A DNA stretch of 64,000 bases from Marsupella aquatica. Lineage: Eukaryota > Plantae > Marchantiophyta. A program made the translations under genes and the position numbers. Positions 3,226-38,560 of this stretch are shown in pieces. Position 1 is the first letter of the stretch. Each line of letters starts with the position of its first letter. The DNA lies in contig OZ316891.1 in assembly GCA_973895155.1 (NCBI GenBank), forward strand, positions 17,916,095-17,980,094, written 5' to 3'. The notes under the pieces are model-generated. The model saw only the letters and a list, made by a program, of their open reading frames with translations, was not told the DNA's origin and did no database searches.

Positions 3226-4378
3226 ATGTCTTCATCCTCTACAACTTCCACCACATCAGACTCCTCCTCTGATGAGGACATAGATCCTCCTCCTCAGCCT
3301 GAAACAGCCGCTCGTCGACCTAGTGGTCTACCACGCCAACTTTGCAGTTGTAAAAAATGTGTGGGGATGGTTGTCCAGAAGTCATATGTATGTGCAGACC
3401 ATATTTCTCGATATGGACAACATCGAGGTCTTACACCCGGAGCCTCTTCATCCCATACGGTGAGTTGTAAACTTACTATGGTTTATTTTTTATTCAATAA
3501 ATATTGCTAGCATGATAAGTTGGGGAAGTTTACAATCACTTTGTTGGATTTGTTCCCTATAGGTATCTAATAGGCCTACACCCACGGCACCAGCACCCTA
3601 TGTTCCCTCACAAGGAGTTCTAGATGCTATAGGCTCGGCCCTTTCACAAGCTTTCCGTTTGGTTGCAGCAGAGCGAAGTGGTGTTGGGACAGTTCAGGGT
3701 GATGGTATTGTTACACGAGGGAAAAAACGGTCTAAAAGGCAACCTAGAGGGGAAGTTGATCAGTACACCTATAGGGTTGATGGTAGGTGGGGACCTTGTA
3801 CATTCACAGGGAAATGTGTTCCTATCATAAAGGATTGGAATCCTGATTGCCTTGGTTTGCCATGTGATATAACCTATGGTGAGGAAATAGAGGTTTGGGG
3901 AAGACATTGGATTGTCAAAAGTTCTACACTAGGGGAGAGACATGGGTATGGAATTTTTTCTTGCCAGGACATCATTGTGGATGATATGGGTGGAAAAGGG
4001 CACTCTCAAGATGGACCAACGTTGTTCCCATATGGTGGACCCATTTACAAGCGAAGACATTGGAATATGCTCCTTGTACAACACCCTGAGTGGAAGACTT
4101 ATGCATTGGACATGGATACTTTTGATGGTTGCACTAGGAAGTATAGTGAACAACGTATAATTGATGGTGATCCCATCCGTAGTGGAAATATAGCCGGTTT
4201 CATTAACAGTACTATGGGGACCCAGCCTAAGCGTAGGAAAAACTGTGAATGGGTTTTTGTTGATGGTCCCCCTCCAGCATCATATGGGCAGAGATATCAT
4301 CATGACCATTGTCTAGTTGTAGCTACCAGGACCATCAAGGCCGGAGAGGAGTTGTTTACACATTATGAGTGGGATTAG
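3226..4378 (+). CDS. Zn-finger (transposase-associated-like) + SET-domain lysine methyltransferase; exons 3226-3459 and 3563-4378, ~349 aa
   Basis: Exon 1 encodes CSCKKC...CADHISRYG. The GTGAGT donor at 3460 and the AG acceptor at 3561-3562 are in phase 0. SET motifs: HGYGIF, IDG...GNIAGFINST, VATRTIKAGEELFTHY. Confidence 0.8.
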
Positions 4379-4574
4379 GCTTATTTTAGGGATATGTATT
4401 ATTTATATGTTCCTTCATGCTTTGTGAACATATATTTTGTAAGTTAGGGTTTACACCCTAAACCTATGATGTTCTTTCACATTGTATGTTAATAATATGT
4501 GTCGATATTGTTTTTGTCTTATGAGGGATTTAATTTGGAGTTTGATTGTGAATGCTTTATTGTATTGTCCATAG

Positions 4575-7500
4575 AATGTGCGACCTAGCCAAGATATGTT
4601 GCCAAGGAGGTTGAGAGCTACATATGAAGAAATGGGCATGCCACAAGACGAAGTCACATCATCAACAGATTCTTCATCCAATGACAGTGACAATGAGCAT
4701 TTGGACGAAGGGGCACCTAGGACAGATTTTGAGGTCATGCAGGACCAGGAGACAGCCATGGATGACTTCATGACAGATTGGTTTGGTGTGGACGCCCGTG
4801 TGGACGTTGATGGTGAAGGACGTGGACCACCCAATGAAGGAGCTCCTCCACCAAATGCTGCACATGACCCTCGACCTCAACATACACCAGAAGGTCAACA
4901 ACAATGGGAAGAAGCGGAGGCACATGCTAGAACACCTATTTATGGGGGTGCTCGTTTGAATAGACTCTCTGCCATCTTGGCATTGATGAATCTTCAGGCA
5001 AAACACAAGGCAAGCAATGCCCTTCTATCGGATTTGTTTGCAATTTGCCATGACCTCATGTTACCTAGTGACAATGTATTTCCAGGAACTTGGAAGGAGG
5101 CAAAGAGAGTTCTATCATCCATTGGTATGGAATATCATATCATTCATGCTTGTATGAATGACTGCATCCTATATCATGAGACCAATGCCAACATAACTGA
5201 GTGTCCAATTTGTCATGAGCCTCGATATGACAACAACATGTTGACGGAAAAGGTGCCCAGGAAAGCTGTCCGTTGGTTTCCCATTATTCCTCGATTGTTG
5301 CATATGTATCGATGTTCTGACTTGGCAGAATTGATGGTATGGCATAAGACACATCGATCAGAGGCCGGTGTCATGTGGTTGCCAGTTGACTCCCCTGCTC
5401 ACAAGCATGTGGAGGCACAATGACCAGAGTTTGCACATGACCCTCGTCATGTGAGGTTGGATTGGCATCGGATGGGGTCAGTCCACACTCCCTTGGTGGG
5501 AAAGGACGCCCAACATCAGTTTGGCCGGTGGTTGTTATGAATTACAATCTTCCACCATGGTTGTCCATGAAAAAGGGCTTCTTATTGCTTCATTGATTAT
5601 CCCAGGTCCATCTAAGGTAAAAAACATGGACACCTATTTGGCACTATTGGTTGGGGAACTCCAAAAATTATGGGACGGTGTGTGGGCCTATGATGGTCGA
5701 AAAACTACAGGGGGATTACCACGTGTCTTCAAATTGAAGGGAATCAATATGTGGACCATGCATGACTATCCTAGTAAGGGGTATGGATTGGTGTTTTTTT
5801 ATGTAATAGAGAGTTTGTTTTAAAAGAAGTCCCTCATATTTATGTATGTACATGAACTTTTTACATCCTTTGACTCTAATTGAGAAAGTTATTTTGGTTT
5901 GGGTTTGTTGCAGGGTTTGGGTTTGTTTCAGGGTTACAAACTCAAGGGTATAAGGCATGCTCCACTTGTGGTCCAAGCCTTGAAGATATGGCCAAGTACT
6001 CAAGATGGCTTCGCAAGATAATCTACCTTGGGCATACCAAGTTTCTTCCACTTGGACATGAGATGAGGTCTGACCCCCTTCTATTTTCAGACTTTGACAT
6101 GATCAATGGTGATGAGCGTGACATACCTAAGCGTACATCCTTTGCACATTGGAAATCCATAGCTGATAGGGTGGCAGACCCTAACGACCCCATGACATTT
6201 GATGGAAGTGGGTTGACGAGGTGGAGTATACTAGCAACATTGCCGTATTGGCCAGAGTTGAAGATTCATCATTTGTTAGACCCCATGCATATAGAGGGAA
6301 ACGTTGGGAAGGCTTTGATCAAGCATTTTTATGGAGAAAAGGACCATAATTTTAGGGAGGCATGCCAGGGTCTAGAACGACATCCAGATGTATGGATAAC
6401 AGTTGATGCATCAACAGGGATGGAACACCGTCCTTCAGCTCCTTGGGTTTTGAGTGTTGGTGAAAGAAGAGAGTTTCGACAACGCATAGGTCAGATGCGG
6501 TTTCCTACAGGCTATGGTGCCAATCTCCGGAAAGCTTTTGGGATGGAGGACAATCATAAGTGGCCAATGTATTTGAAGACACATGACTATCACCGTTTAC
6601 TACAACATATACTTCCTGTGGCAATCATAGGCTTGGGCAGTGAAGAAATGCAAGACGCCCTATGGTCATTGGGCACTTTGTTGAGATGGATATGCTCAAA
6701 GGAAATATATGAAGAAGAGATCCCACGGATGGAGGTATTGGCAGCAGAGGTAGTGTGCAAGTTAGAGAAGGCCCTCCCTCCTTCCTTCTTTGATTGTCAA
6801 GTACATTTACTTGTTCATCTTGTGAGGGAGGTTGCCATTGCTGGTCCAGTGCATTGTTGTTGGATGTATTGGTTGCAAGGTATATGGCTGTGTTAAAGGC
6901 TTATGTACGGAATCGTGCACGAGTGGAGGGGAGCATGGCAACAGGATACTTGGCAGCTGAGAGTATGTTCTATTGCAGCAACATCTTAGCCACCATTGAT
7001 CCTAGTTGTCCACACAGTTGGATGGAAGAGAGAGAAATGGAGGAGGATCGTTTAACAGGAGCCAAAAAAACACGCTTACTAACCGGAGTGGAGTTGACAC
7101 AGATGACTACTTTCATGTTGAGTAATAGTACTGTGATGGAAGAATGGAGAGAGTTTTATGAGGATGCAAAGAGGGAGAGTCGTCGTCCAAGGATTTTTCC
7201 AAAGTTCCTTGAGTATATGAGGGAGAAAGTACTTCAGTTGGATGCTATGGTGGCCCAAGGTGAGAGTGTATCACATTTTCCAGATATGACTCCTGAGGTT
7301 CGAACAATTGTTCATGGCCCTTTGAGACTTGTTCAGACCAGAACAACAATGTGGACACAAGGGAGACATTTCAGGATTTCTGACCTTGATGAGAAGAGGG
7401 GTAGAACTTTTGACTGTGGAGTTCAAGGGCAGTTCATGCAGGATTCACAAAGTAGCGGCCATGACACCAATGTCATCCGAGATGTGGTGCCTCACTATGG

Positions 7501-7861
7501 GAAGATAGAGGAGATCTTGATTGTATCCTATGATGCGGATACAAAATTTGAAGAGTATGTCTTCAAGTGTAAGTGGTTCAAAATTCACTTGGTTGGTGAG
7601 AATCGCACAGTACTTCTTGATGATTGTGGGTTTACTCGACTGAAGACATCGGCAACTAGCTTTCAACCATCTCATTGGCAAACATCTGAACCGTTTACAT
7701 TCCCAAGTCACCTTGAGCAGTGTTTCTATATTCCGTACCCACCAGACCCAGAGGAGTGGTCAGTTGTTATACCGTATGTGCCACAATCTCGTTCCATTAT
7801 CTCAGAAAAACCTGAAGTTATTATTGTGTCAAATGGAGGAGAGGATGAGGACCAAGTTTGA
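4575..7861 (+). pseudogene. CACTA TnpD/tnp2 transposase (Transposase_21, DUF4218 and DUF4216-like regions), disrupted
   Basis: IHACMNDCILY...CPICHEPRY, LASDG, YNLPPW, IIPGP, HDYP, LDPMHIEGN, LKTHDYH, PPSFFD..VHL.VHL, YVRNRARVEGSMA. TGA replaces Trp at 5421, with frameshifts at ~5460, ~5590 and ~6875. Intron 5774-5913. Confidence 0.92.
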
Positions 7862-7918: not shown

Positions 7919-8060
7919 TGTTGTAACTCATACTTGAGTTAAGTCTACCTTTGGGATAACTACCTATGTAACTACCCTAACTACTTAGGCCGTAGCCACA
8001 TGTACATATTCTACCAAGAGTAAAGATGGAACCAACTCTTTGTCTCATTATCCTACAACA
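7919..8060 (+). repeat. 5' LTR (142 bp)
   Basis: TGTTGTAACTC...CCTACAACA; matches 22551-22693 except for one substitution and one indel near the 3' end. Confidence 0.95.
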
Positions 8061-8074
8061 CGTTATCAGCACGA
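8061..8074 (+). promoter_or_regulatory. Primer-binding site complementary to the anticodon arm of tRNA-Ile (half-tRNA primer)
   Basis: CGTTATCAGCACGA lies directly after the LTR. Its reverse complement TCGTGCTGATAACG matches the tRNA-Ile(AAT) anticodon arm, with wobble A read as G/I. Confidence 0.7.
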
Positions 8075-10765
8075 CTCTACGAGGCTGAGCGGAGCTAGGC
8101 CATGAAATTTTTTTAAGAAGAAGGGCGAATTGAACAACGAAAAGAAGAAGACATTGATAATCTCATAAGGATCAAAGCAGGATTAAGAAAGACCGAGTAA
8201 GGCAGATCCGGGAAAGAGGACCGAAGGCAACCATTCGACAACTGTGAGCACTTTCAGAAATAAAATTTTTAACAAGGACATTGACGAATCAATGAAAGAA
8301 GCGCAACATCGTTCGAAGACGATAAGGACAACCTCAGACTGGCTGAATTTTTATTTTTTTAGGCCATGACTGATTCACTCTAAGACCTGAAGAGGCCGAG
8401 CCATGACGGAGCTTTGTTAGAGGGGCAGAGAGAGGTATGAACGAATTTGGCGATGTATCGCTGGAAAAAGCTGAATGAACGAGAGAGAGATGGCGGAATT
8501 AAGGATTGTGATGTGATGGATAAAGAATTGCGTCATAGCGTGCACAAAATTTGCGGATGAGAGAGTCCTATAGTGATGCGAGGTGAGGTCATGTCAATCA
8601 AGGAAAAAGGGATTGTTATCTCTGAAGGCGGAAGCGGCTAGCTAAAGAAGCCGAAGAGTTTTCATCAGATTCTACTAATTCCCTATCTCCACATCGGCAT
8701 TCTTTTCATGTGCATCCATGTGCACAATGTGGGCCTGGCGATGGTGAACTGAACCTTCAAAGTTTTTCCCGCGTTCCGAGGATTATGAACCGAATGGATT
8801 GTTTTCACAAACGCAAGTGAACGCCCTGCTTGATCTGACCTAAAGGAATGACAAAATCATACGCACTGGCTGAGATTCAAAGCGTATTCCAATGAATTTC
8901 GAAGAAGGAAGAACGACAAAGGCGCTTTGATGAAAGAGAATTCTCCTTTTGAAATTGACCAGACGACCCAATCTTGAACAAGGGCCCTCACACAGAGCAA
9001 GACTTACCGACCGGGCCACCGACTACCTTGAAGTCCACCTGATTCAGAGACACACAAAACTAACTACAGAGAAGAAGGATCGGACCCAGATACAATTTGG
9101 CACACAATGATAAGGACAGGGGAGAAGGAGGCCCGAGTCATTCGAGTACGATACCGCATCCAGAACGATACAAGTGCTGTATCGATTTTGGCAATAAGGA
9201 TAACAAGGCAGTGACATCGACGGCATTTAGCATGAAATATCGAGGAGGCCCCAGAGATAAGAACCAGAATGTCACATCATAGGTAGAGAAGACGGCACAA
9301 TTCACGGGACACAAACAGACCACCACAGAGCGAAATAGTGATGCGATGTGGAGGCGTTGAAATTCGGAAATGAATATGAAGGAATGCAGCAAGAAGTGAC
9401 CAGAGGGAAGGAATGAAGGAAGGAACCATGCCACAATAAGCGAGTGAAGCAGAAGATTCAGAGGATTTCCCCTTGTCGAAGGAAGGATTGGGACCAATAA
9501 CAGAAGATAAGAGAGAGCGCAAACCGGAGAATTATACTGTCGACAACCATGACCAGGCGCAGATGGAGTGAAGGACGATAGATAGAGCAAAGGACCACAA
9601 AGAAAGAAGGCATACTTGACGTTTAGAGAGCACGAAGGGAATGCCTACAGCTGACGAACAAATCTCGCAACAAAGAACTTCAAAACTTTGAGAAAACATC
9701 GAGAACATACCGCTAAGTGCAAACCCTCCTTAATTGCAAAATCCGTCAAATAGATTTGCGTATACAAAGAACAATGTGCACTGAACCAGGGAAACACACA
9801 TACTAAGAACGGGGACAAAATGGCATTAAAATGAAAGATATCTATTGGGAATATTACCATATAAGAATTGCCATTCACAAATTAAGGGGGAGAATTGTTT
9901 TTCCCAACGTGCCTATTGCATTTAAAAGCTGCCTATGGCACTTAAAAGTTAAGCTCCGTGCCTACTACACATGGAAGCAAATGAGTGCCTACTGCACATG
10001 GAAGTAAATGACAAATTGAGGGGGAGACATCAAGTAAGACTTGACATCAAGCAATGTAACCCATGGGATGTGCCTATTGCACAAGTGCCTATTGCACAAG
10101 TGCCTTTCGCACCAACGAATACCTAAAAATGGAACTCTATTCCATGCATATGGCAAATCATGAAATCTAAGGAATTTTTATAAATGATTGAACATGGTGT
10201 TAACACAATCACTTACCAATACTTGATGAGGTATACTGGATATTAAAGTACCATATGATAATATGAGGTACAGTACTAGGTCATAAGGTACCATAAGGTG
10301 AGACATGGCATGGTAAGGCACCATAAGAGATGGTGCGCCATACCCCAATATGATAACCCTATGTTGTGGATATGGTACGTGATGTGGTGCAAATAGGTTA
10401 TACCCACACCAAATCTAGGGTTGGACACCCAATCCAATTCCAAGGCCATGGATTACACCATCTCATCTTCATTTTGTACTAATACTTTGCTTTGTCATGA
10501 ACACGATTTCGGACCGACCGAGAAGTGTGTCGGAGTTCTCGTTTAGCCCGATCCCGTTTTTTTTCTAAGGCAATGCAATGACCGATAAAACTGGCAAAAA
10601 CTCTCCGAAACGCCACTTTCCTCCATTGCATCGCCGCGGGAATGTAGGGAGCGATACGTGCATCGGGTTTTACATTCCGTCAGTGAAAAAGTCCGAACTG
10701 CGAGTAACTTGGTTCGAACCGCGTAATCCAGGAATGACCACGCACTAACCCAGGTAAAAGGGGAA

Positions 10766-10819
10766 CTTAACCATGGTTAAGGGGAAATTAACCATGGTTT
10801 AGAGCGTCTCCTATATAAA
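10766..10819 (+). promoter_or_regulatory. Putative cargo promoter: duplicated TTAACCATGGTT palindrome followed by a TATA box
   Basis: CTTAACCATGGTTAAG at 10766-10781, a second near-copy at 10788-10801, and TATATAAA at 10812-10819. Confidence 0.45.
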
Positions 10820-11414
10820 GAGGAGCGGGCTGCCCATAAAACGTTTTCTTTCGCCAGAGCAAATATCTCCTGACTGAGAGCGAATACCAAACTCCCATCA
10901 AGTCTTACATTCCTCCCAAGCGATTCGACTCTTTCTACCGAAAACCCGATAAATTTATCGGAACAGCCATTCCTGTTCAAGTTCTCCATGTAAGACTAAC
11001 TAGTCATTTAGTGTAAAATGTCCAGATCCGAGCGGACTGCGATAAATTTATCGCATTTTGCATTCCTCTGTTGCAATCATTTGATCCAGTGTGTTTAGAG
11101 AGGTGTTGCCTTCATTCCGTTAAATTTATCGGAGTCTCCATTCCTTTCATGGAAAGAGGAGTAATTGAGAATTCGATAAATTTATCGGAGTTGTCATTTT
11201 TGTGAAAGATTGAATTCAGGGCTTAGGTGTTTGAGGAAGTCATATTTTCAATTCGAATGCGGAGTGCGATAAACTTATCGCATCCTCCTGTGAGAATCAT
11301 TTTCCTTTGTTTTGTTTGGAGACTCATCTTCATCTCTGATGTTGCAGTGTTGCCGGGTTTAGGAGGCACAACGGAAGGTCGATTGCACTCCGTGGACAAC
11401 AGGTATTGTGACAA

Positions 11415-11744
11415 ATGGCTGTCTTCCTTGAAAATCGTGTCAAACGTGCACGCCGGTTGTACAAGAGACTCGTGCGACTCAAAGTTCTCCCCATCGGTAT
11501 AGGAGCATTGTGGATGGGTGGTACTGATCCTGGAGATAGGCAGAATCCTCTCCGCATTGAATTCTGCGGAATGAATGATGCAGGAGTTCCAATTTGTTCG
11601 AGGTTGATGTTAATGGCGTGTTTACATTCTTTGGAGTTTTCTTGTAACTATTGTTGTCGTCGTCTTGATAACAAGTACCACAAACAGGCTCACTTCTGTT
11701 GTAAGATTTGGAACGAAGACCCTTGGGTGAACCTTTCACGATGA
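11415..11744 (+). CDS. Transposon cargo ORF, basic and Cys/His-rich, function unknown
   Basis: ATG-initiated 109-aa ORF (RARRLYKRLVRL; CNYCC...H...HFCC). Confidence 0.4.
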   Translation: MAVFLENRVKRARRLYKRLVRLKVLPIGIGALWMGGTDPGDRQNPLRIEFCGMNDAGVPICSRLMLMACLHSLEFSCNYCCRRLDNKYHKQAHFCCKIWNEDPWVNLSR

Positions 11745-11932
11745 GTGTTTCGACCTTTTCATTGAGGCGCATCTTGGAAGGACATATTTAAATAAACAAG
11801 TCCTACCCTTGCGCAGCGAATATAATACGTCATGAGTCCTAATCGTTAAACTGTCGTGCAGGGTTGGTACTGTGTTTGGTTACACCTGGTGATTGAAGGT
11901 ATTTTTATTGGTGGTTTTGGTAGCTCTGCTTC

Positions 11933-12481
11933 ATGGCTGCATCGGAGAATCTAATCGTTGCAAAGATGGGATCCGTTTTAGCCCACGAGCGTAGGAAATA
12001 TATTCGAGGAAAAGTGCCCGGTGTGGAATGCGGAAGTTTTTTGAATGGACTTCCCGATGAACTCGTTGAATCTCACATTTGGCCCCTCCTAGCATTGTCT
12101 TGCACACAAGATGAAAACCTTGGCCTTGACCTAAAACTTCTACCAGAAGAACGACTAACTCGAATGAGAACAATCATTTGTCTTGGAGCCACCTCGAAGA
12201 AATGGAACCATCTTGTTGTTGGTACACGATTTTGGGCGCTATTGAAATATGCAGTCCGTGAGATCAATGACATAAACAAAATGCTCGCAAGCATTCCTAA
12301 TGCCGTCCTTCTCTCAAACCTACATATTGCTAGGGTCTTCCGAGAGGAAACTCATTTCCTCCCTCCCATAGATATGCTTGGGTGCTTCTCGTATGACCGA
12401 TTAGATGTGTTTCTTAGAGTTTGGGTGAATCTTGGAGAAAGCGGGAAGCGGACAATTCTTGCATGGCATGGACGAGTCTGA
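11933..12481 (+). CDS. Transposon cargo protein with an F-box-like motif
   Basis: FLNGLPDELVESHIWPLL...ICLGATSKKWNHLV...FW follows the F-box pattern LP.E....I...L....L..V.K.W..L. Confidence 0.6.
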   Translation: MAASENLIVAKMGSVLAHERRKYIRGKVPGVECGSFLNGLPDELVESHIWPLLALSCTQDENLGLDLKLLPEERLTRMRTIICLGATSKKWNHLVVGTRFWALLKYAVREINDINKMLASIPNAVLLSNLHIARVFREETHFLPPIDMLGCFSYDRLDVFLRVWVNLGESGKRTILAWHGRV

Positions 12482-12773
12482 GTGGATGAGGCATTGCAGC
12501 GAACATCCGATAAATTTATCGCACTCCTCATTCCTCTAGTCGATTTTGGGTGCTTGTAAAGAAACACTTTGAATATAATTGACTCTGCCTCCCCTGACTT
12601 CGGGTTGTGTGGTCCAGAGTGTATTTTTTTGCGCCTCTTCGGACGATTAGCTGACAAGTGCATTGGCTTCACAGCCCGTTATACAAGGTACTGTAAAGTT
12701 GGATGAAACTTGTAGAATTGTAATTAGTATGTTCTCCAAAATTTATTCCTGATTTCTATTCGGTGATCAGGCC

Positions 12774-13250
12774 ATGCTCGAGCGACGCATTTTTGTACCC
12801 TTCCCGGATCCTCCAGAATGGGGGAATGGAGCCATGCTGGACCAGCTAAGGAGGCTGGATGAGTCACTAATTTTAAAGATATGTAGGCTGGTAGTAAAAC
12901 CGTTTTACCATAACGCATTTCACTTCTACGTAGATCAGGTAGGGGGAGAAATTTATATTCGGTGGGATAGATATGTTGGATTTTCTAAAAGAGTTATCCT
13001 ACTCTTTCTGAAAATTGGTGCAGTAAGACGTTTTATACTCCACTGCTGTCATGTTGTGAAGGGCAATCCTGCTTATGAGCCAGAATTCTATGCCGACAAC
13101 AGACGTAGAGCATTCGATGAGATTCAGGATGTGATTGACGAGCTAGACAATCCTCTTGCCACCGAGTTTTTTATTGACACTGGTGGGAAACTATATTCAT
13201 ACAAGATTCGTCAACTCCCCCCCCGGCCAGCCGGTCCGTGGGCTCTTTAA
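12774..13250 (+). CDS. Transposon cargo ORF, function unknown (158 aa)
   Basis: ATG in GCCATG context just after a CAG acceptor; globular-looking composition. Confidence 0.45.
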   Translation: MLERRIFVPFPDPPEWGNGAMLDQLRRLDESLILKICRLVVKPFYHNAFHFYVDQVGGEIYIRWDRYVGFSKRVILLFLKIGAVRRFILHCCHVVKGNPAYEPEFYADNRRRAFDEIQDVIDELDNPLATEFFIDTGGKLYSYKIRQLPPRPAGPWAL

Positions 13251-13711
13251 CTTGATCTATGTAAGTTGCCTGTGGACGAACGTCCTTGCCAATGGTGAGA
13301 TCTGTCCATGTTGCACAAATGCTTGTTGTGACATTCCGTCACGCCGATATTCAGTAGCAATAGTGAATCCTGAGACTGGTGAAGTTGATTTCCATTGGCT
13401 GTGGGCTTATGATCATCGCGTCACTCATATTCCCCAATGGCCCAAGAAGCGGATCGAACGCTTTGCTCTGGCGAGGTTCAACTATGATTAGGGTTTAGGT
13501 TTAGGGGTTAAGGTTTTGGATTTAGGGTTCCGTAGCTGATTCTTCGACCTGTACACTCGGCCGTCAATTTAAAGAAGGCTCACTTTTGCGATAATTTTAT
13601 CGGTCTCTTTGTCCTTGTGTGATGAGATGTCGTGTCCACATGTGCTGTGAGATTGGCGGCGATAATTTTATCGCTCTTTGCATTGGAATTTGTTTATTTG
13701 CAGACTTTTCC

Positions 13712-16700
13712 ATGGCTGCTAGTGGAAAGAGTGGATCTGCTGAGGCAGAAAGTCTCATGACAAGCCTCACCAATGCAATTTGGACAAGTGAAGACATTTG
13801 TGAAGGGATCAAGTGTATCAAGAAGTCATGGTACTTCCGTGACGCCAGATTACAGTCCACGGGTTTCGAAGACTGTGTTACCCCAATCCTTTGGGTCCAG
13901 TTGCAAAAATCGGCGAAGGTTAATGTTTCGTATGGCCCTGTCATTGTTGTTGCCGTCGTCGAGTTCATGGTTGGCCACGGGGAGGGAAAAGTGTTGACAG
14001 AGGGCCTTAGTTTCTTGACAATGTGTGGGCGCAAGGGTTTCACATCTCTCATTGTTACTCTCGATAACTTTGATGAGAAATCGATGGACAGTTATCCAGA
14101 AGATCCCCTTGTTGCTGATGTTCGGGCAGCAAGAGAGATGAATGTTATGGGTTCGGCTTGGATCGGCCAGTATGTGCAAGATTGTGATGCCATCATGCTT
14201 CCAAGGGTGAACGCAGAGTACAAGAGACTTGTGGGTGAAGAGTTCAAACCTGTCCGCAAAATTGTTTTCAAGAAACCAGGTTCAAGTGGAAGCGGTGGTT
14301 CTAATGCCGATAAAATATCGGGGCGGAAAGAACCATTGCAATCCTCTACACATATTGACGTGGACGAACCTACAACTTCTGGTCGGGTTTCGGGAAGTGG
14401 AAAAGGGAAAGGGAGAGGTAGCGGCAGGGGAGATGTCGCGGGAACCTCTGACGGTGGGAAGAAGAGCCAGGAAACTGGCGGTAGTGGGAGAGGCCGGGGC
14501 AACCATTGAGGACCATCCATTAAACCAAGCGAAAGTAAAGGATCCGAGGGATCCGGGCCATCTGGTTCTGGACTTAGCACAAAGAGGAAGAGGACTGGTT
14601 GGACTGAGACGGTGGCTGCAGAAGTAGATAGAGCTCCATCAATTCCATCAGTTCCAGTCGCGGTTCCTACGGCGCCATTGGTAAGTACTACGTCGTTGTA
14701 CTGTTTAACAAATACGAAATCCGATAAAAATCTCGCTATTTATTTCCTGAATTGCGGATTGTGGAGTTATGTTGAACAAATGCGAACTCCGATAAAAATC
14801 TCGCAGTTTCTTTCCTTAATTGAATTTGCAACGCTTTTGTAGGCTGATCAGGAGGAGGAGACGGCTCTTTCGATGTATGAGACGGACGCGATCAAGGCAG
14901 AGCTCAGTCTTCTGATGCAACAAAGGGTGCAAAGGACAACTGTGCTTCTGCATGTCGACAATCTCATATTTGATGAGGAGGGGGATTTGACAACTTTGAT
15001 TAGACCAGTGGATAGATTGCATGTGGAAAATATCAAGATACTTCTCATGAAAAACCCCACCAACTTCAATGCCCCGTTCGTGCTGTGTGTGGATCCGAAG
15101 GATTGTCCCACAACCGCAGATTGGGACATCCTGAAGTCAAGGGTATGGAAGTATAGAATTATTGGAGGGAATCATGGTGCTCGGGCAAAGTCCGAGTTGT
15201 TTAAAATGTACAGGAAGCAAATATATGGTGAGCTGGAAGCTTGGGTTTACGCTGGGCTTACGAGATCCGAGGTCCGAAAGTTAGGCTTCCAGCATAACTA
15301 TGACCAGGAGTATCGGAAGAACATGACTAAAATTGACCAAGTTCGGGCTTGTCACAATATTTTCCTTGAAATGGGTGTGGGCTCGACTAAAGATGTCCGC
15401 GAAGCATGTTGTCAAGAATGCATGATGGAGTACACGCCAGGAGTTCGTGACTCCATGGCCAAACATGATCCGGCTTTCCAAATTGCTTTCCGAACAGGTG
15501 AAATTTGGGATCTTCAGGAGCAGATTTTCCAGATGTGGGAGAAAGGTATTGTCTTAGGACAACCCAAAAAAATTGTGGCAACGACGAACACAAAGGGAAA
15601 GGTGAAACCTTTGACGGTAAGGGAGATTAAAATGAATAAACTTGCTGGTGACCTCAACTTAAATTCATTTCGAGGTCTCCAAGGACTATCAAATAAGGAG
15701 CATGTCAAGCGCCTCTTGAATAGGGTTATCGGGAAGGTGATCACTTTGGATCAAATGCACAAGGAAGGTGAGAAGTTGAAAAAGCTTGCCAAGGTGAAGA
15801 AACTATTTTTGCAGATATCTGGTCAGCCAGATTGGGCAACATGCAGAGAAATGTTTCCCAACGAAACAGATGTCTCGGTCCTTGGCATATGGGCGGAGAA
15901 ATTGAGTGACGCGGTAAGCATTCCTCTCACAGCATGCTCTATCGCGAGATTTTTATCGGCTTTAGCATTCCTTTGTTGGTTTCTAAGCGATTCCATTTAT
16001 TGGCTAGCGTGCTCCATCGCGAGATTTTTATCGGCCTTAGCATTCATCTCACGCTATTCTAATTGTAGATGTGTCTGACATTCTTACAGCTGAAGATTAA
16101 TTCAAAAAGGAAAAGCAAAGTGGTTCCGGCTGTCACTTATAATTCTGCGGGGGAGGTTATTGTTCCCTCAGCTGAAATCCCTTATGTGTTTAAGAATTTT
16201 GTGCTTGCTGCAATCGATAAGTACAATCGGCTGAGGTCCTTAGGCGAGGGCACAGCAGAAGCGTTTGAACAAACATGGAAAAATGCAGACGGGGATTCTT
16301 TTCCCTACTATCTCCATGTTGGTGATGTTCGAATTTTGGATTCTTTTGTTCAGCCAAGGGCTTACACCCTTGCGGTTGCGGATATTCCGTATGGTTTTAA
16401 TGCTCCTGGTTCGGAGTTTGATGAAGTGGCCTTCACAGAAAAGGACATTTTAGACATGTTGACAAGTTTCTCAAAGATGACGACCGCTAAGCAGTGGAGG
16501 TTTGTTGTGATCCATTCACTACAACAAACGCATATGGTGATGTCTGCACTGGAGAGTGTATGCAACTGTGGGATCGAGGCTGGAATCTGGGAGAAGACTA
16601 ACATTCATGAGCGTCCCGCTGGAGCTCGATTGGCGTGGGGTTTTGAGAACTGGTCGATAGGTTTCTATAGCGAGGAAGGCATTCGGAACATGAACATGTA

Positions 16701-17202
16701 CAATTTCCAACCGGATGAGTCTCGCGTCAATATCATCAAGGTTCCATGTGTAACCAAGAAGTCCGTTGATCCGTTGGGATTTGTTGTGAACCCATATCAG
16801 AAGCCTGTTGGTTTAGGGGCTTGGTTTGTTTCCCATTTCTCTGAGAAAGAGGATTGGGTTATTGATCTTTGTTGTGGAACCGGATCGACATTAGCTGCTA
16901 CGCTCCTCAATTCTCGCTAGGGTTGTGCTGTTGATAAGAGTTCTACGCAGATTGGTTTTGTAAAATCCCGGATCATGATTCTGGAGTCAAATTGGAATTT
17001 ATATGAAGAATCCCAGATTGAAGGGCACGGCGTTGAAGGTCATGAGATTCAACCACCAATTGCAGGCCAATTGGGTGTACTCGGGACATCGACTTACGTA
17101 GTTGAGGTCGTGAAGGAGACCAAAGAGGAACAAGAAGAAACTGAGGAAGAGCCTCCCAGAACACCAAATGAGGATGATCTCAATGACATGTTATTAGATT
17201 AG
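13712..17202 (+). pseudogene. ParB/Srx-like domain + beta-class N6-adenine/N4-cytosine DNA methyltransferase fusion (~1050 aa; exons 13712-14680, 14843-15913, 16090-17202) with two nonsense codons
   Basis: Both introns are GTAAG...AG in phase 0. ParB-like RPVD..HV..I...PFVLCV...YRIIGGNHGARA at ~15000-15190. MTase motif IV DIPY (16381), NPYQKP, then motif I DLCCGTGST (16864) give the beta order. In-frame TGA at 14507 and TAG at 16918, with the reading frame continuing after each. Confidence 0.85.
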
Positions 17203-17530
17203 TTGCGTGTGCTTGTTAGGATAATGTCAATCACCAATGAAGTTGTCGATAAATTTATCGACTTCTGTATTCCATGAGGAAGAACCTTTGTCACATTTAT
17301 TAATGCAATAAATTTATCGGACTTTGCATATATCGGACTGTCGCGGTGTTCCTGCTGGGGGAATGGAGTTGTCGATAATCTTATCGGACAGCATTGTATT
17401 CTCTAACTGGTTTGTCATTGCAATTATTTAAAAAAAAAGATATCATTATAGCTTCGGAGTACATAGTCCCAGAACGATAACCACTGTACATATTCATGGG
17501 AACGATAATCATTATAACTTAAACCTGAAA

Positions 17531-20500
17531 CTAGCTTCGACTATCAACGACTACAGTCTCCATTGCATTTTGAATGATTCGTCTTGTTTGTATAGGGAGA
17601 GTACTATTTGCCAATAACGCAAAGTTATACGCATAAACGGCAGTTTCTGATAGGGACAATTCATCCTCCAGTACTTTGCTAGACGAAGCCTCTTTCTCCG
17701 GATAATATCTGCCTTCAATTGCAGACTCTTCCTCCGAATCCATTGCATACCAAGTGATTTTAATCCGCTCCGGGATGTCGTTAATTCTTGTGAGAATCTC
17801 AGTCACTTTTGCCATCCAGAATGGTCTTCCCTTGGGATCCTGATGGGCTGCTACACATATCATTGCAAATTTAGTATTCACCTCTAGATCCTTGAAGTCT
17901 CCAATTTCCGTGACTTTTCTTCGACTTCCGGAATACATGACTGTCCTCACACCCGCTACTTTATCAACCAAGCTAGGTTCCATTGCTGCTTCCGTAGGAT
18001 TACTCGGAAGTTCTCTCTGTACGTTTACCTTGGGCCAACTCCAATCAAAACTCCATTGTGCAGGTTTCAGGTGGTGCTGAATCACTTCTTTTTGTTTGTC
18101 AAAAAAACGACCCCACCATAGACGATCTGCGTCGTCAAAGTAATTGAATCCATCTTCAATTGCTCTTCGATATTTTTGAAGAGTTGACAAATAACTTTGA
18201 GCCGCCGGCTCATCTTGTTCCTCAGCATCATTCTCTTGCTCTTCATTGTCTCCTGTCGCTCCCGTGGCCGACTTCAATGCCATTTGTGGTGCGACCCACA
18301 TTCCAGATGATGGAATGTACCAAAAAAAATCCACCGTCTCCCCCCAATCGATTGTCGTTGAAAGATGTTTGGCATGGAATACGGACCGAGCACTTCCATC
18401 TTCGAGTACTCTAGTAATCCGAAATTGTTTTTGAGCACTTATGCCGTGGAGAGTACGTAGAACCTGACCATCCATATCCTTGTCATTTGCTTGATCCTTG
18501 TCTGACACAAATTTCTTGAAATCGGTAACCTCGTCGACGAAAAATATCTTTGCCGTAGGATTGTAGGATTCCTCTATGATTGCTGAAAGAGTGTCCAACC
18601 GGAAAGCTTTCCGCTTGTTCAATTTTGAAGAAAACTTGCTAAACATTTGATCAATTTGATCATGGGTGTGCCCCACCAGTAGGAAACCAACCTTTATTTT
18701 CTGGAAAACACCTATCTCCACCAACATATTCAAATATGCCATAAGATATTTATTCTTGTTTTCCCGAGCTGTGTTATCAAGCTGGAGGTAAAGCACTGGA
18801 GGGAGCAGACCTTCCCAGGTATTCAGAATATGCTGGATAACGTGGATGGTCAGGTTGCTATCATTGTGAATATTTGGATAGTTCAAAAAAACATTTGAAC
18901 TTAATTGTTTGTTGAAGATCAAACAACCCACTACGTGTACGGGGATGAAATACTTTTCATCCATATTCTTCGGACACCGAATGAAATGAGGTAACTCTGT
19001 CTTCTTTTGATCCATTCCATCAATACAGATGCCCAAATATTTCTCCGGACTCTTGTAACATTTGCTCCGGTGCTTTGCTAACTTCTCCCTCTCGACTGCT
19101 TGTGCCTTCCGATGCTCGTTTAGCAATGTTGAGAATTTTCCTACAACAATAAAAAAATTTAGGACAAAACATGATAACCGCAATGTTGAACCCTGACAGC
19201 GATAAATTTATCGGGTTCAGTATTCAAACACGAGACCGTAATGATAAACCCTGACAACGATAAATTTATCGGGTTCAGTATTCAAACACAAGACCGTAAT
19301 GAAAAACTGTGACAGCGATAAATTTATCAGGTTCAGTATTCAAACTGTTCAAACGATATATTCACTCACATGGCCAAAGAAGAAGCACATGAATACTCAA
19401 CCCGATAAAATTATCGGGAGTAGCACACAGGTTTAGAAATTTACTCTTTTCTGCTTCGAGTGTTGCCTTGTCACGGAGTGCTTTGAATTCAGTACACGGG
19501 GCGCAGGTGGAGAAACGGCTCCTTTTGGGGATGCGCACGCGAGGAAACTCCTTGTTCCAAATGCGAACAAACCACGAATATGTCATGCCTTGTTCTTGGC
19601 GCATTAGAGTTTCGGACTGGAAGGCATCAAAAACTTCTGTTTTTGTCCAATTGTCAGGTAAATGAAAGATATCCTTGTTGGGGAGACTCTCGACATTTGT
19701 GGAAAAAAAATCATCCAACCATTGGACGAGACCAAGATGTGCGGGTGATTTTTCTCGACAAACTGTACCGATCTATATCCGACAAAACATGTTCTGCGAG
19801 ATTTTTTGGAGACGATTATTTCCCAGTGAAAATAATTTCTTAAAACCACTTCGACAAAAGGATCTACCGCTAACTGAGTAACCACTTGCACCAGCATGCC
19901 CACCCTTCACACATCCTCTTAGAAGGACGTTCTTCTCTGGGTAGGATAGCCCATAGTAATAAGTGCGTTGTTTCGTCACGGCTAGCAGACCCAAATTCCG
20001 CAGACAGTAATTATCACAACACGAATACTTATGAATTTCTCTCATTTTGTTTCTATTCAATTTGTCATTTATCACATTGTCTTTCCTAGTAATTCGGTCC
20101 CTATCTTTTTTACTAGGCTCATTTGACTTCTCTACAACCTGAAATCCGTTCATAACATTGGCATTTTCGGGTCCTTCAGGTGCCTCGTGAATAGATGCAT
20201 CACTCTCTGCTGAGCTACCATCCTCTATAGATCTCCTTGACGCATTTAGAGGGGCACTGAATAGACGACTATAGCTATTCTCTTCGACAGCTCCTTCTAA
20301 ACATTCAGACACAACTTGTGCTATTATATCGGATTCTCTATCTCCTTCCTCATCTTTGTCCTCCGATGCACTCGACTCATCTGAAAACACAATTGGACTC
20401 CGTGGCTCTCTATACATAACCCGAACGCCACTAAGACCTCTCCTTGATACTTGGAGCCTGGAACCAATGACAGTCCGCCCTTGAGAACTTGGAGATTCTG

Positions 20501-21122
20501 GATTCGCACGTGCAGTCCCAACGACTCCGCGAGCTGCTGGAAAATTGAGCACTTGTTCACCACGATTCCCACGGACCATTCGAGAAAGGGCCGAGTCTGG
20601 ACTTCGCAGTCCGATTCCCTCGCTTGCTCGCACATCCAGTCCAGGCAATGCAAAGACCGATCGCCGTATCGGTCTTTGTATTTCTGTGTCCCGATCCTCA
20701 CCCGGAGACTGAAAGATCCGTCGTTGAACTTGTGTTGAATGTGGCAACTTGAATGCCGACTGCGATACGCGTATCGGTCGCCGGATACCCTCTCCATAAC
20801 CCGGGATGGATGGCCTGAAGCGACGTCTCGGACCTAAACCTGGGATTGAAAGTTTCTCATTTCTTGGCGATGGAACGCTCAAGAGACGATGCTTCTCAGG
20901 TTTACTAGGCGACACATAGTAAGCACTGGGCTCAGGACCAGAACTTGCATCAGAATCTGAGTCAGAGATTTCGGGCACTATTTGCTGTGAGAGAGGTAGA
21001 GCTTTAAGTATGCGACTTGGCAAACAGCGAGCGACAAGATTAGGAGAGGATTCAACTGAACTGGAAGGTGAATCTGTGTCTGATTGAGACATGGCTATCC
21101 GAGACACTATGGGGCTTTGCAT
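17531..21122 (-). pseudogene. Sola-like (DUF7869-type) DDD transposase; exons ~21122-19445 and 19140-17531; one nonsense codon
   Basis: IDGMDQ...LQLDNTARENKN...FLLVGHTHDQIDQMFS catalytic motifs and Cys clusters SCCDNYCL and FSTCAPC. Intron 19444-19141 restores the frame (EK-R-KFS). In-frame TAG at 19773-19775. Confidence 0.85.
19177..19345. repeat. ~58-bp tandem repeat (3 units) in the transposase intron, each carrying the 14-bp palindrome
   Basis: CCCTGACAGCGATAAATTTATCGGGTTCAGTATTCAAACACGAGACCGTAATG-like unit; palindromes at 19200, 19258 and 19316. Confidence 0.9.
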
Positions 21123-22550
21123 TCCTCCCACAATCAGGGAAAACGAAAGGCTCAACGGACAGAATGTTGCTCCAAGAACACAACTCCCAAAACTCTACTC
21201 TCGATAATGATGCCAAAAACTTATCGGCGGTGGCCCTTTTATAGTGTCTGTTGAGGGGTTGGCCCACGTGTCCACTTTTGATTGGCTGTCACCCTAAACG
21301 ACAAAATAGCAGAAAAGGGTATATTTCTTGGATTTCCAATTTCATTCTCACACGTGCATCGTGGCAAAATTATATAGTTTTGAAATTGAAGCGATAAATT
21401 TATCTGATGTTGGTATTGCAAAAGTGGTTCCTTCATATGGAAGTTGCAATTTTGAAATTGAAGCGATAAATTTATCTGATGTTGGTATTGCAAAGAGTTT
21501 TCTTCATATGGATAGGAATTTTGAAATTTAATCGATGAACCGAAGGATCTTAGTATTGTCGACTAGTATTTTTGTCGCCCGTAGTTTTTGCGATAATTTT
21601 ATCGGACTGCGCATTGCTGTTGAAAGAATGGCATGTTGACTATGGTCACTTGCGGAGGTAACTGGTCAATTGCGGAGGTAACTGCAAGGTAAATTTGATG
21701 AACCGTGCAGTAATTCTTATCGACTGTGATGTAAAATATTTTTGGTAAATATCCAAAAACTGAGAAACCTGAGATTGGGTCGGAGTTTTCGTGGCTCAAA
21801 TCCGGAGTTCGATACAGTTATCGCACTTGGCTCGAAACATGGATATGGATTTATAGATAAGACCTTTCATATATCTTCGGAGAGCGTGAATATGAGGTCG
21901 AGGAGAAAGTTTTTCGGATCTAATTGTTCCTTGATAATATGAATGTTTGTTAGCATGAATTTCATTGGTTTTGATCATTATTAAATTTGTTGTTTCAATC
22001 CGAACTCCGATACGAATTACATTATTTCCCCAAAAACGCATTTTTGATGAAAAAAACTGCCAATTTCGCGAGATTCGGCGGAAAATAAAAATACACTTCT
22101 CGTTTAGAGGAAATAGTTCTCGTTCGGTCCGAAATTGTGTTCATGGCATGTAATCGGTGACCATCAAGGAATCTCCATTTCCAGATTGGAAGATCTTCAA
22201 CAAGCCTATAGTGCTAACAAGCACCTTAAGAGACTTTGTAGAAATTACACATACACTATATGCTTAAACCCAATTATGTTACACCCATGGGGATGGTAAT
22301 ACTCTTTCCTCCCACAAAGAAAGTAGGGGAGGTTTTAATGAGGTTACATCCCCGACTTACACTTTACCATGCAACATGAATTATAAGACATCTATTAGGA
22401 GAAGCTTGACATTCATTTATAGTAGACTTGAGATGGCTACACCATTTATAAAATAGACTAGACATAAACAAAACCTATTGCATACCACTGAATATACCCA
22501 AAGTAGACTCTTGATTGTAACATTTCAACCCCAATGTTACAAAGGGGGAG

Positions 22551-22693
22551 TGTTGTAACTCATACTTGAGTTAAGTCTACCTTTGGGATAACTACCTATG
22601 TAACTACCCTAACTACTTAGGCCGTAGCCACATGTACATATTCTACCAAGAGTAAAGATGGAACCAACTCTTTGTCTCGTTTATCCTACAACA
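22551..22693 (+). repeat. 3' LTR (143 bp)
   Basis: Preceded by the PPT and followed by TSD CTATC. Confidence 0.95.
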
Positions 22694-23399
22694 CTATCAT
22701 GGTTTTATTTATATTTACCTATTTATTTTCTTCTTTTGTCTTACAAACACTTGGACTTTGAAATTTCATTTTACTGCTATACATGCAACCCTAGCCACTA
22801 GAAAAGTTCTCCTCATGCATGCCACCTTTTTTAAATCCCTAGCTTATAACCTAAACACATGCATTCTCCATCTTCTAAAGTTTTCTCTCAAAAATTTCCA
22901 TTCTGAAAACTTTGCAAACAACTCTCTTTGTGAAACATTTTTTGAACCAGACAGGAATGAATTTTTGAACCTCTTGTGAATCCAATTCCATCGGTACTTG
23001 TGATACAAATACGTTCTCAAACTTGCGACCAAATTGGCTTCGGTACTTTGCAACCCACCGTTCTTCACAACACTTTCCGAACATAATAGGTTCACAAACC
23101 ATTTGTGATAGTATTAGTCTCGCTAAATTATGAACCAAAATGTATCCGAATACGGTCGCGATGGTCGCGGACTCACAAAGTTGTTGCGAGATAACTAGTA
23201 TCTAAACGTGTTGCGAAGTCAATAACATCAAAACTTAATTGCGATGTATGTAGCTTCGCAACGTGAATGTGCGATGGTAAGAACATGGGATATTGTGATG
23301 CGTGTTACATCACAAAATATCTGAAGGTTCTAACATCGCAAGGCCTTTTCGACTTCAAAAAACACCTTCGCAAAAGGGGCCGATATGTAGTAGTGTTTA

Positions 23400-36400: not shown

Positions 36401-36959
36401 AAAATGGATTGGGCTGTAGCTGCTGCATTATGTGATGTGAGGAAAACCTTGAGCATAGTGAAGCAAGGGATGAAGATCGTGAAAAAACTTATCCTATGGG
36501 GGAAAGAAAGGTACGTCGAGATAAGATTTCTGATGAAGTTCGAAAACAGGTGGAACACTTTTGGGAAACCCACACTTAGATTTCTCCATGTAAGAACAAT
36601 GAAGCCAGATTGCGACTAGGGCGGAAAGTGTATGAAACACATCAAGTGCACTGGCTGGAGGATACACAGGTGAGAAATTCTCCATGATTGATTTTGCCAC
36701 TTTTGCTTTTAACTCATAATACAATCTGCAGATGTTGAGAAGTAGTTTTGCTTCATGTGTGCTTTAGCCATTGTGCTCTGCTGTAACCACCTAGTTTCTT
36801 CTTTAAGGTAGGATCTGAATAATTTTGTGAGACCTGACGTCCTATATAGCCTAGCAGGAAGGACTCTGTTCCAGGAAAATTCCTTCAGGACCGACTATCT
36901 AGGCCTTCAGGAAGCACTGTTGAATCCTTGTCAAGTGAAGTCTGGCATGAGAAACAAGT

Positions 36960-38560
36960 TGAGTCCTTGGCAAAGTACTATCTAGTTAATCACTAAGGAC
37001 TATATAGTCCTTGACTCAGGAGTATGGATAGCAGTGAAGTCCTTAGTCAAAGGACTTTACTCCTTGGATAAAAACTATAGTCCTTAGCAAAGGGCTTCAC
37101 TAAGCGTCAAGGACTATATAGTCCTTAGCAAAGGACTCTACTCCTTTGCCCAGGACTATATAGTCCTTAGCAAAGGACTCTACTCCTTTGCCCAGGACTA
37201 TATAGTCCTGGGAAAAGGACTGTAGCCCTTAGACAAAGGACTGTACTCCTTTGCCCAGGACTATATAGTCCTGGGAAAAGGACTTTACTACTTTGTAAAG
37301 GACTTTCTGAAGGACTTTACTACTTTGTAAAGTACTATAGTCCTTTCTAAAGGACTTCACTCCTTTGTGAAGGACTATTAATAGTCCTTACTCAAGGACT
37401 TTACTACTTTGTAAAGGACTATAGTCCTTACTCAAGGACTTTACTACTTTGTAAAGAACTATAGTCCTTTCTCAAGGACTTTACTCCTTTGTGAAGGACT
37501 ATTAATAGTCCTTCCTAAAGGACTTTACTACTTGGTAAAGGACTGTAGTCCTTACTCAAGGACTTTACTACTTTGTAAAGGACTATAGTCCTTCCTCAAG
37601 GACTTCACTCCTTTGTGAAGGACTATTAACTCGGGGGGGTCACTTCCACGGAAGTGACACATCACGTGCGACGAAGTATAGGCCCATTTAAATGGGTGTG
37701 GCGGAAGACTTCCAAAGTTTGGTGGAAGAACACATAGGGCATGTTTTATTGATTGGTCGACTTTAAAGAACACATAGGCCTATTTAATTGCAAAAAATAC
37801 TTTCTATAAAGTTTTTAGGGGTTTTTTAATAAAAAATGACAAAATTTTAAGAAAGAAAGGGCTTTGCAAAAAATTATTTTTCACTTTAAAGTTAGGGGGG
37901 TCAAACCCTAAAACGTCGCACGCGATGTATGACCCTCCATATAGTGACCCCCCCAAGACTATTAATAGTCCTTACTAAAGGACTTTACTACTTTGTAAAC
38001 GACTATAGTCCTTCCCCAAGGACTTTACTCCTTTGTAAAGGACTATAGTCCTTTCTCAAAGACTTTACTCCTTTTAACAGGACTACTAATAGTCCTTGGA
38101 CTTTACTCCTTGGTACGGGCTTTCGTAAAGGACTATAGTCCTTATTCTTTCAAGAACTGTAGTCCTTTGTAAAGGACTATAGTCCTTACTCAAGTGTTTA
38201 CTCCTTTGTAAAGGACTATAGTACTTACTCAAGGACTTCACTCCTTTGTAAAGGACTATAGTCTTTATTCAAGGATTGTAATCCTTATTGAAGTACTTTA
38301 TTCCTTGTCGAGGACTGTCTTTAGTCCTCATCCGAGGACTATGTAGTCCTTCGATAAGGACTTTCATCCTTTGTAAAGGACTATAGTCCTGGGTTGTGTT
38401 ACGTCTATAGACCCCGCTATAGACTAGTCCTTTGTCAACGAGTGAAGCGCTTTGACCAAATGATTGTAGTACTCCTCCCCGATGGACTTTAGTCCTTAAG
38501 CTTTGCTGGTAGTCTTCCAATGAGGATTCCAACCCTTGCTGAAGGACTTCAGTCTAAAAG
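36960..38560. repeat. Intronic array of AAGGACT/AGTCCTT units forming the palindromes AAGGACTATAGTCCTT and AAGGACTATATAGTCCTT
   Basis: Dozens of GGACT/AGTCC units visible inside the transposase intron. Confidence 0.9.
37630..37957. mobile_element. MITE, 328 bp, 8-bp TSD ACTATTAA
   Basis: TIR CTCGGGGGGGTCACT / AGTGACCCCCCCAAG; TSD at 37622-37629 and 37958-37965. Confidence 0.9.

Follow-up and report, generated by a model that had tools for sequence, protein, structure and literature searches.

We analysed a stretch of 64,000 nucleotides from the liverwort Marsupella aquatica (GCA_973895155.1, contig OZ316891.1, positions 17,916,095 to 17,980,094 of the forward strand; "the window"). It contains an 11,642-bp DNA transposon (10500..22141, with no strand assigned) that carries two convergent genes: a transposase on the minus strand and, on the plus strand, a gene that joins a ParB-like part to an amino-methyltransferase (MTase). 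Our main new result is that a bipartite cis-site with a fixed geometry recurs along this element and in related loci.

The element is flanked by two copies of CATG (10496..10499 and 22142..22145) and ends in imperfect terminal inverted repeats (TIRs) of about 32 bp (10500..10531 on the plus strand and 22110..22141 on the minus strand), neither of which contains the site motif. In public contigs, the empty insertion site appears as a joint from 10494 to 22141 in two of four runs, and a third run has a matching loose end at 10499. Because the empty site keeps just one CATG, the element must be 10500-22141 and the target-site duplication must be 4 bp. An earlier note, made from the letters of this DNA, had placed the ends at exactly these positions. 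It had also described a TIR-bounded element with a transposase and a convergent ParB-MTase gene, and the TIRs, the empty site, and the domain matches given below confirm this.

The element is a member of a multi-copy family with some tens of copies. It is covered in 30 of 30 bins in all four runs, and depths of about 480-550 and 830-940 were recorded for the main contigs of two runs, versus 14-19 and 23-28 for the lowest contigs, although contig depth cannot be converted to copy number. The window copy differs from the majority of copies at only 20 of 2551 bases, which indicates a young family. The element's flank is itself repetitive (the empty-site contig has a depth of 453). One run (X3, of the four) contains a derivative of about 1.7 kb with an internal deletion (joint 11289->21210), which retains just the two terminal clusters of sites. 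We also saw raised depth over 21226-21676 in three runs; together with the deletion derivative, we read this as non-autonomous relatives. A direct repeat of 151 bp (97% identical; 7919-8068 and 22551-22699) flanks the element on both sides.

The transposase gene has two exons and about 1085 codons. Exon 1 (19445..21092, minus strand) has an in-frame TAG at 19773-19775, and exon 2 (17531..19140, minus strand) encodes the catalytic part, which matches DUF7869 from Pfam (E = 1.5e-49). DUF7869 is the only profile that the transposase matches, and the element has no Pfam match of the Mutator-like element (MULE) or VANC type. The Sola superfamily is recognized by a 4-bp target-site duplication plus TIRs. 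The duplication in this element (CATG, from a single insertion) and its TIRs fit this pattern; the CATG target does not match the A/T-rich target of Sola1. Pfam lacked a Sola profile, according to PMC5751038.

The ParB-MTase gene has 1050 codons in three exons, separated by GT-AG introns in phase 0. Exon 1 (13712..14680, plus strand, as are the other parts of this gene) encodes a conserved domain of about 180 amino acids, of unknown fold, and a low-complexity linker. Intron 1 is at 14681..14842. Exon 2 (14843..15913) encodes a ParB N-terminal fold (residues ~30-160), a helix-turn-helix (HTH, ~160-225), a basic linker, and a helical part. After intron 2 (15914..16089), exon 3 (16090..17202) encodes the methyltransferase. 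The fusion is also found within single proteins (P0012, P0001 from Chara, and P0063 from Ginkgo biloba).

To compare this gene with relatives, we used five metagenome loci that contain a ParB-MTase gene (L001-L005), of which four have introns and flanks; these four come from one data set. The exon 1 domain is 30% identical in all three loci that reach it, and a profile built from these four rows matched one further protein among the relatives that we collected. The convergent transposase is present in both of the loci that extend to it (L003, 54%; L002, 57% over 28 amino acids). Exons 2 and 3 retain 49-72% protein identity while synonymous sites are saturated (proportion of synonymous differences, pS, of 0.78-0.86 across nine pairs), so by these comparisons both the ParB and the MTase exons are under purifying selection.

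The window copy itself is broken. The earlier note had reported two stops, and both are in the ParB-MTase gene, at codons 266 (TGA, 14507) and 957 (TAG, 16918); it had missed the third, in the transposase. The TGA is private to the window copy, as C is present there at full share in both runs, so this copy is dead but the family probably is not. At the TAG, no differing base reaches a share of 65%, and there is one unitemised difference near one end of the covering contig. With three stops in all, the window copy is non-autonomous; it could be served in trans.

The earlier note had described about 23 copies of a 14-bp palindrome, CGATAAATTTATCG, and had seen them nowhere else in the window. 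This was correct. With up to two mismatches there are 19 matches, all between 10947 and 21823 (the chance mean is 0.10, and 0 of 100 shuffles reach 19), and with up to three mismatches there are 24, none of them outside the element. The palindrome turned out to be a special case of a more general frame, CGA(G/T)-N6-(A/C)TCG, which is followed by N7 and then by YATT. The full composite site is 25 bp, longer than the palindrome that was first noticed. The element contains 21 exact frames (0.37 expected), and the other 52 kb of the window contain 2. Allowing one mismatch gives 23 positions within the element and a single one elsewhere in the window; those within the element form 10 clusters that are 0.7-2.0 kb apart (about 1.2 kb on average).

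Eight of the 10 clusters are internal. The left subterminal cluster (10652..11280) has six composite sites (10652, 10947, 11040, 11118, 11174, and 11267), and the right subterminal sites (21392..21823) are at 21392 and 21464, where one arm is changed, at 21591, which is complete, and at 21810. Between these, a weak single site on the plus strand (11739..11763; one mismatch and an atypical core) may be due to chance, and a composite site on the plus strand (12508..12532) lies between cargo open reading frames (ORFs). Two sites are just upstream of the start of the ParB-MTase gene (13589..13684, plus strand), of which 13589 lacks YATT and 13660 is complete. Each ParB-MTase intron has two sites (14722 and 14790; 15945 and 16020). 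Sites between the convergent 3' ends span 17247..17386 (17247, 17373, and a decayed site at 17306). The transposase intron (19141..19444, minus strand) has four (19200, 19258, 19316, and 19403), the first three of which form a 58-bp tandem repeat. The idea that the sites avoid the coding exons mostly stands, as just 2 of the 23 positions are in the 55% of the element that codes. Those two, which are divergent sites (20658 and 20763), are within transposase coding sequence, in the low-complexity N-terminal part of exon 1, where they fill a gap.

The geometry of the site is conserved in the related loci. Exact frames number 11 in L001, 20 in L002, 6 in L003, 4 in L005, and 0 in L004, which is almost wholly coding; other spacer lengths between the arms give 0-5 matches. 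YATT lies exactly 7 bp beyond an arm at 57 of 62 sites (19/21 in the element, 11/11 in L001, 19/20 in L002, 6/6 in L003, and 2/4 in L005). At other offsets (0-19), YATT occurs at most 3 times per locus, and the background is 1.4-2.3%. Some exact sites have YATT on both flanks (6/11 in L001, 4/6 in L003, 2/4 in L005, 3/21 in the element, and 0/20 in L002), which is what a dimer would allow. The 7-bp spacers before YATT are nearly all distinct (20 of 22 in the element and 17 of 19 in L002), so the sites are not mere copies of one repeat. Three differences among copies of the family fall in a site, and all three are within the spacer (two of them are adjacent, so this is weak evidence).

The core of the site varies between families (AAATTT, ACNNGT, or GTTTGG). 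The window's own motif is absent from L001-L005, where other motifs occupy the same introns and flanks. L001 and L003, which group together, both have the ACNNGT core (there are just three core types). Relatives thus keep the gene and the geometry of the site while the core is family-specific, as expected of a protein and its cognate site. Also, this non-coding geometry has outlasted the saturation of synonymous sites, so it must be under selection.

A single-sequence prediction for exon 2 reached a pLDDT of only 34. We built a fold model from an alignment of the window's exon 2 with sixteen homologs (51-80% identity; 17 rows). Foldseek with this model gave nine PDB matches at E ≤ 0.001, all of them ParB, Noc, or PadC, and the named top viral matches were nearly all ParB or Spo0J. 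Using VIA-align, residues 30-160 superpose on the ParB N-terminal domain with Z of 10.9-11.5 and a root-mean-square deviation (rmsd) of 2.0-2.7 over 92-99 aligned residues. Alignments that extend into the HTH, to about residue 220, were obtained with KorB (137 residues aligned, Z 9.0, rmsd 3.4) and with the ParB of Caulobacter (136 residues aligned, Z 9.1, rmsd 4.9). Among PDB sequences the alignment matches only one, the DNA-binding domain of Spo0J (E = 0.089), and L002 matches HTH_ParB below the cut-off (E = 8.6e-4). Pfam, NCBIfam, and PADLOC do not recognise exon 2 as ParB. According to the model, exon 2 carries the ParB N-terminal fold, and we have moderate confidence that it also carries a central HTH DNA-binding domain. 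The earlier label of a ParB/Srx-like domain was therefore right about the fold but too narrow, as it left out the HTH. By Atlas features, the nearest clusters to exon 2 are fungal DUF3723 (0.95; 164 of 256 in common), which is a lead only; DUF3723 is conserved cargo of Starships and may likewise be a ParB-like self-binding protein.

Exon 3 matches a PHROG (E = 1.2e-6), and its Atlas matches are all N6_N4_Mtase (0.95; 193 of 256 features). Complete exon 3 sequences from L001-L003 are all (3/3) above the Pfam cut-off for N6_N4_Mtase. Motif IV (DIPY, residues 97-100) precedes motif I (DLCCGTG, residues 259-265). Judging from the profile matches and this motif order, exon 3 is a beta-class amino-methyltransferase of the PF01555 type, as the earlier note had it. 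That note had left open whether the product would be N6-methyladenine (6mA) or N4-methylcytosine (4mC). The first residue of motif IV is D instead of S, which argues against 4mC, and the SPPY motif of eukaryotic N4C methyltransferases is not found in exon 3 or in the relatives' rows that cover motif IV. Beta-class enzymes with GAAT-like targets are known. Because motif IV is of the D type, and because YATT has an invariant A and begins with C or T, 6mA is favoured over 4mC. D-type motifs go with N6A and SPPY with N4C (PMC8885841).

We propose that this is a transposon family whose ParB-HTH/MTase fusion likely binds the 14-mer and likely methylates a nearby adenine, and so marks its own copies; we see this proposal as evenly balanced between right and wrong. 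Its steps differ in strength. We are fairly confident that an HTH dimer would read the two arms, with the family-specific core as each family's address. Going by sequence, the enzyme is probably active in intact copies, with 6mA rather than 4mC as its product. More tentatively, the target would be the adenine in YATT/AATR, at a distance fixed by the docked HTH, with one enzyme domain for each flank; alternatively, it would be an adenine in an arm of the palindrome. The action would be local, with no need for sliding driven by cytidine triphosphate (CTP), and if so the sites must recur along the entire element, about every 1.2 kb. The weakest step is the last, in which the mark would favour the family's expression or mobility; self-restraint is an alternative, and counter-silencing, which the earlier note had suggested, is a candidate role. 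A broader claim is possible but doubtful: that land-plant transposons write their own 6mA by means of a ParB-derived HTH dimer on a family-specific 14-bp palindrome and a beta-class enzyme acting on the adenine of a YATT exactly 7 bp away, in members ranging from charophytes to Ginkgo. This would bring programmed 6mA to a lineage regarded as lacking it.

Several observations weigh against our proposal. Of the window copy's 14 private C-to-T changes, 12 are at CG or CHG, which is the footprint of host 5-methylcytosine (5mC). So, this copy was not kept free of 5mC, and any protection is partial or limited to some stage. Nor is there any sign that the CpGs in the sites are protected (2 decayed among 24 sites, versus 7 of 216 CG cytosines in 14440-16990). 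Another repeat in the window has arrays of an AAGGAC-N4-GTCCTT palindrome along with 20/40-bp repeats (36960-38500 and 43027-43436), and that array region has no ParB or MTase match with the profiles from this study. The four informative loci are from one data set and have three core types, which is too few to look for co-variation of the core with the HTH. The sequences used to define the frame are also those in which it was counted, a circularity that the controls with other spacer lengths and the four loci from outside the window reduce but do not remove. Co-occurrence of sites and gene was compared one way only, among elements that carry the ParB-MTase. The model of exon 2 is middling (pLDDT 64, pTM 0.49, and under 50 for residues 235-283). 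Exon 3 of the window, which is truncated by a stop, scores below the Pfam cut-off (20.5 versus 26.7). Motif I usually has F where exon 3 has C. Finally, motif IV is DIPY rather than DPPY, 5 of 14 plant-type rows do not have DxPY (they have DIPH, DFPC, or DALY), and the motif is degenerate in animal relatives (DMPQ, DMPK, or DVPN).

These motif IV variants fit an unlikely alternative, in which the ParB-HTH binds the sites and the MTase domain is non-catalytic. The protein would then be a regulator like VANC or KorB, and YATT would be a second binding contact. The placement of the sites in introns, intergenic regions, and terminal regions is also like that of VANC21 sites (PMC5735166). However, the MTase exon is conserved as well as the ParB exon is (56-72% identity with saturated pS), and the intact exons in three of three loci pass the Pfam cut-off. 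The D, P, and Y of motif IV (DIPY or DVPY) and the glycines of motif I are kept in 4/4 rows, and three distant members have DPPY. In the 14 further rows that cover motif IV, D is first in all 14, and 9 have DxPY. An annotated phage methyltransferase, whose activity is presumed from its annotation, aligns with DLPY.

We consider it improbable that the transposase is what binds the sites, either for synapsis of the ends or for transcriptional control, with the ParB-MTase as cargo that has some other target. The deletion derivative, which keeps the terminal clusters only, would suit this idea, as would the neighbouring element with palindrome arrays but no detectable ParB, and transposases can act as sequence-specific activators (10.64898/2026.08.24.746577). 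On the other hand, the TIRs are free of the motif, and most of the clusters are internal, including those in both ParB-MTase introns. Also, ParB genes adjoin inverted-repeat arrays on elements with an unrelated, EnSpm-type transposase (10.1101/2025.02.11.637652).

Taken as a canonical ParB clamp that loads with CTP at parS-like sites, slides, and spreads methylation over the element, the earlier note's reading is in our view quite improbable. The fold does combine a ParB-CTPase domain with an HTH, and the pocket is under selection: across the 17 rows, H151 and N152 are invariant and G108, G109, N110, H111, and R114 are nearly so, so some ligand may still bind. But box II of exon 2 is GGNHG, and just 3 of 120 aligned homologs have the box II arginine (43 have S, 42 have G, and 10 have T); a member with DGNHR fixes the register. 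Loss of this arginine abolishes nucleotide binding in the ParB-fold proteins that have been tested (PMC12704722), so a canonical CTP clamp is doubtful. Recurrence every 1.2 kb or so and a second element at a fixed distance would also be superfluous for a long-range slider.

That the palindromes are neutral remnants of tandem duplication is hardly credible and is largely refuted: some sites do lie in short tandem repeats (19177-19345 and 21378-21539), but the geometry is kept across families whose synonymous sites are saturated and whose spacers have diverged, and the sites avoid coding sequence.

A profile search gave 341 proteins at E ≤ 0.001; we describe relatives from among the best 150 of these matches and looked up the source of 30. 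Among the matches listed, the named members include at least several proteins from Chara braunii, three from Riccia sorocarpa, the Ginkgo biloba protein, and one from an amoebozoan (P0138), and the animal members are from a sea cucumber (P0194), a hemichordate (P0114), an anemone (P0170), and amphioxus (P0164). N6_N4_Mtase was found in 8 of the 39 long matches that were scanned (7 above the cut-off), and a local MTase profile found the domain in 18 of the 189 proteins collected. In a tree of 46 rows, the window's copy falls within a clade of 12 rows with support of 100/100. One relative (P0070) carries an extra SAM domain, and another (P0111) has a weak Tudor match. A search of the longer proteins for words from the MTase exon gave no match, but it is insensitive, since a clear relative (P0001 from Chara) escaped it. 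A pattern scan of viral contigs (IMG/VR) and GTDB gave no close relative; the best phage matches are 21-28% identical over long stretches.

The element also contains three cargo ORFs on the plus strand (11924-12481, 12753-13250, and 13147-13491; span 11924..13491). The first has a weak F-box-like match (E = 0.055), and no counterparts of the three were found in L001-L005. Elsewhere in the window, AAGGAC-N4-GTCCTT arrays are also present at 34118 and 46954-47260, and the main array lies between ORFs at 35579-36619 and 38638-39435, which we take to be transposase-like from a motif, as they have no Pfam match. This repeat is possibly another motif-array element. Within the array is an insert of about 320 bp (37630-37955) that resembles a miniature inverted-repeat transposable element, with G-run/C-run inverted ends. 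A CACTA transposase (Transposase_21, DUF4218, and DUF4216; 3563-7861) is preceded by an ORF with a SET domain (E = 5.3e-7), so it is possible that this is a second transposon with chromatin cargo. Host-type genes include an ORF of the MAPEG family (48306-48776, minus strand, E = 7.7e-25) and a TAF4-like gene with a plant RST domain (56157-58405, minus strand, E = 2e-6).

The kind of element that we describe is already known, as a prediction, from algae; the anatomy of the site is new. The earlier note's claim of a new system is not supported, as the same layout and the idea of self-modification were published for Sola1-1_Ec32 of Ectocarpus (PMC12477816), and ParB with repeat arrays was published for Plavaka. 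Sola1-1_Ec32 is likewise a giant element with TIRs and an accessory gene, for ParB plus an N4C/N6A MTase, on the strand opposite the transposase, and the protein is of similar size (1104 amino acids versus 1050 here). It differs in being from a brown alga and in being 21.5 kb rather than 11.6 kb, and its homology is assumed from layout, not sequence. The main text of that paper describes no cis-site, and it refers to proteins of this sort from green and red algae.

In the Plavaka (EnSpm) elements of Bostrychia, a ParB accessory gene (PAG2/PAG3) adjoins inverted-repeat arrays, binding to the element itself was proposed, and an N6_N4 methylase (PF01555) is on the same element (10.1101/2025.02.11.637652). 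There, unlike here, the two domains are encoded by different genes, one of which fuses ParB with a 2OG oxygenase and the other the methylase with SET, and the transposase is another one. The arrays adjoin the gene instead of being spread through introns, and the accessible text reports no second element at a fixed distance.

Bacterial ParB, Noc, and KorB, with their parS, NBS, and OB sites, share the ParB-CTPase fold, the HTH, and a palindromic site with the protein described here, and phages have ParB fused to PF01555 as well (PMC12704722). The differences are that the box II arginine is missing here, the gene is eukaryotic and spliced, and the site is bipartite. DN4MT1 from Marchantia and N4CMT from rotifers are also bacterial-type beta-class amino-methyltransferases in eukaryotes (10.1101/2021.02.12.428880; PMC8885841), but they are host genes with SPPY that make 4mC and lack ParB, whereas the MTase here has a D-type motif and is borne by a transposon. 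Long terminal repeat (LTR) and DIRS retrotransposons that carry DAM (10.64898/2026.05.21.726589) similarly encode prokaryote-type adenine methylases that are linked to 6mA on the element. These are retrotransposons with methylases of the DAM family, the accessible text does not mention ParB, and Streptophyta reportedly have no DAM-LTRs. PMC4738411 lists other ParB-linked methylases of eukaryotes, but not, in its accessible text, this fusion. Our literature search, whose scope excluded Repbase and the supplements of both algal papers, found elements of this kind in the two algal papers only, with no land-plant report of such an element and no bipartite site.

The algal proposals that ParB proteins bind or modify their own transposons were not demonstrated in the accessible text of those papers, and we can now give a prediction at the level of single bases: it specifies a 25-bp site and the candidate adenine, and it concerns a family with tens of copies that are nearly identical and with relatives whose frames are naturally open. 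If it is true, then these elements would give land plants, in which abundant 6mA is reportedly missing, a source of real, local 6mA. It would also mean that there is a compact site-directed methylase whose address varies between families.

To our knowledge, VANC has neither a ParB nor a methylase domain. Like the element in Marsupella, VANDAL elements of Arabidopsis encode a protein that goes with short, family-specific motifs in introns, intergenic regions, and terminal regions (PMC5735166), but VANDALs are Mutator-like, their arrays are non-palindromic and in the same orientation, and the outcome, loss of 5mC, was shown experimentally. VANDAL was named as the only proven case (10.1101/2025.02.11.637652). 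If our proposal is true, then the transposons described here would join VANDAL as a second class of transposon that modifies itself.

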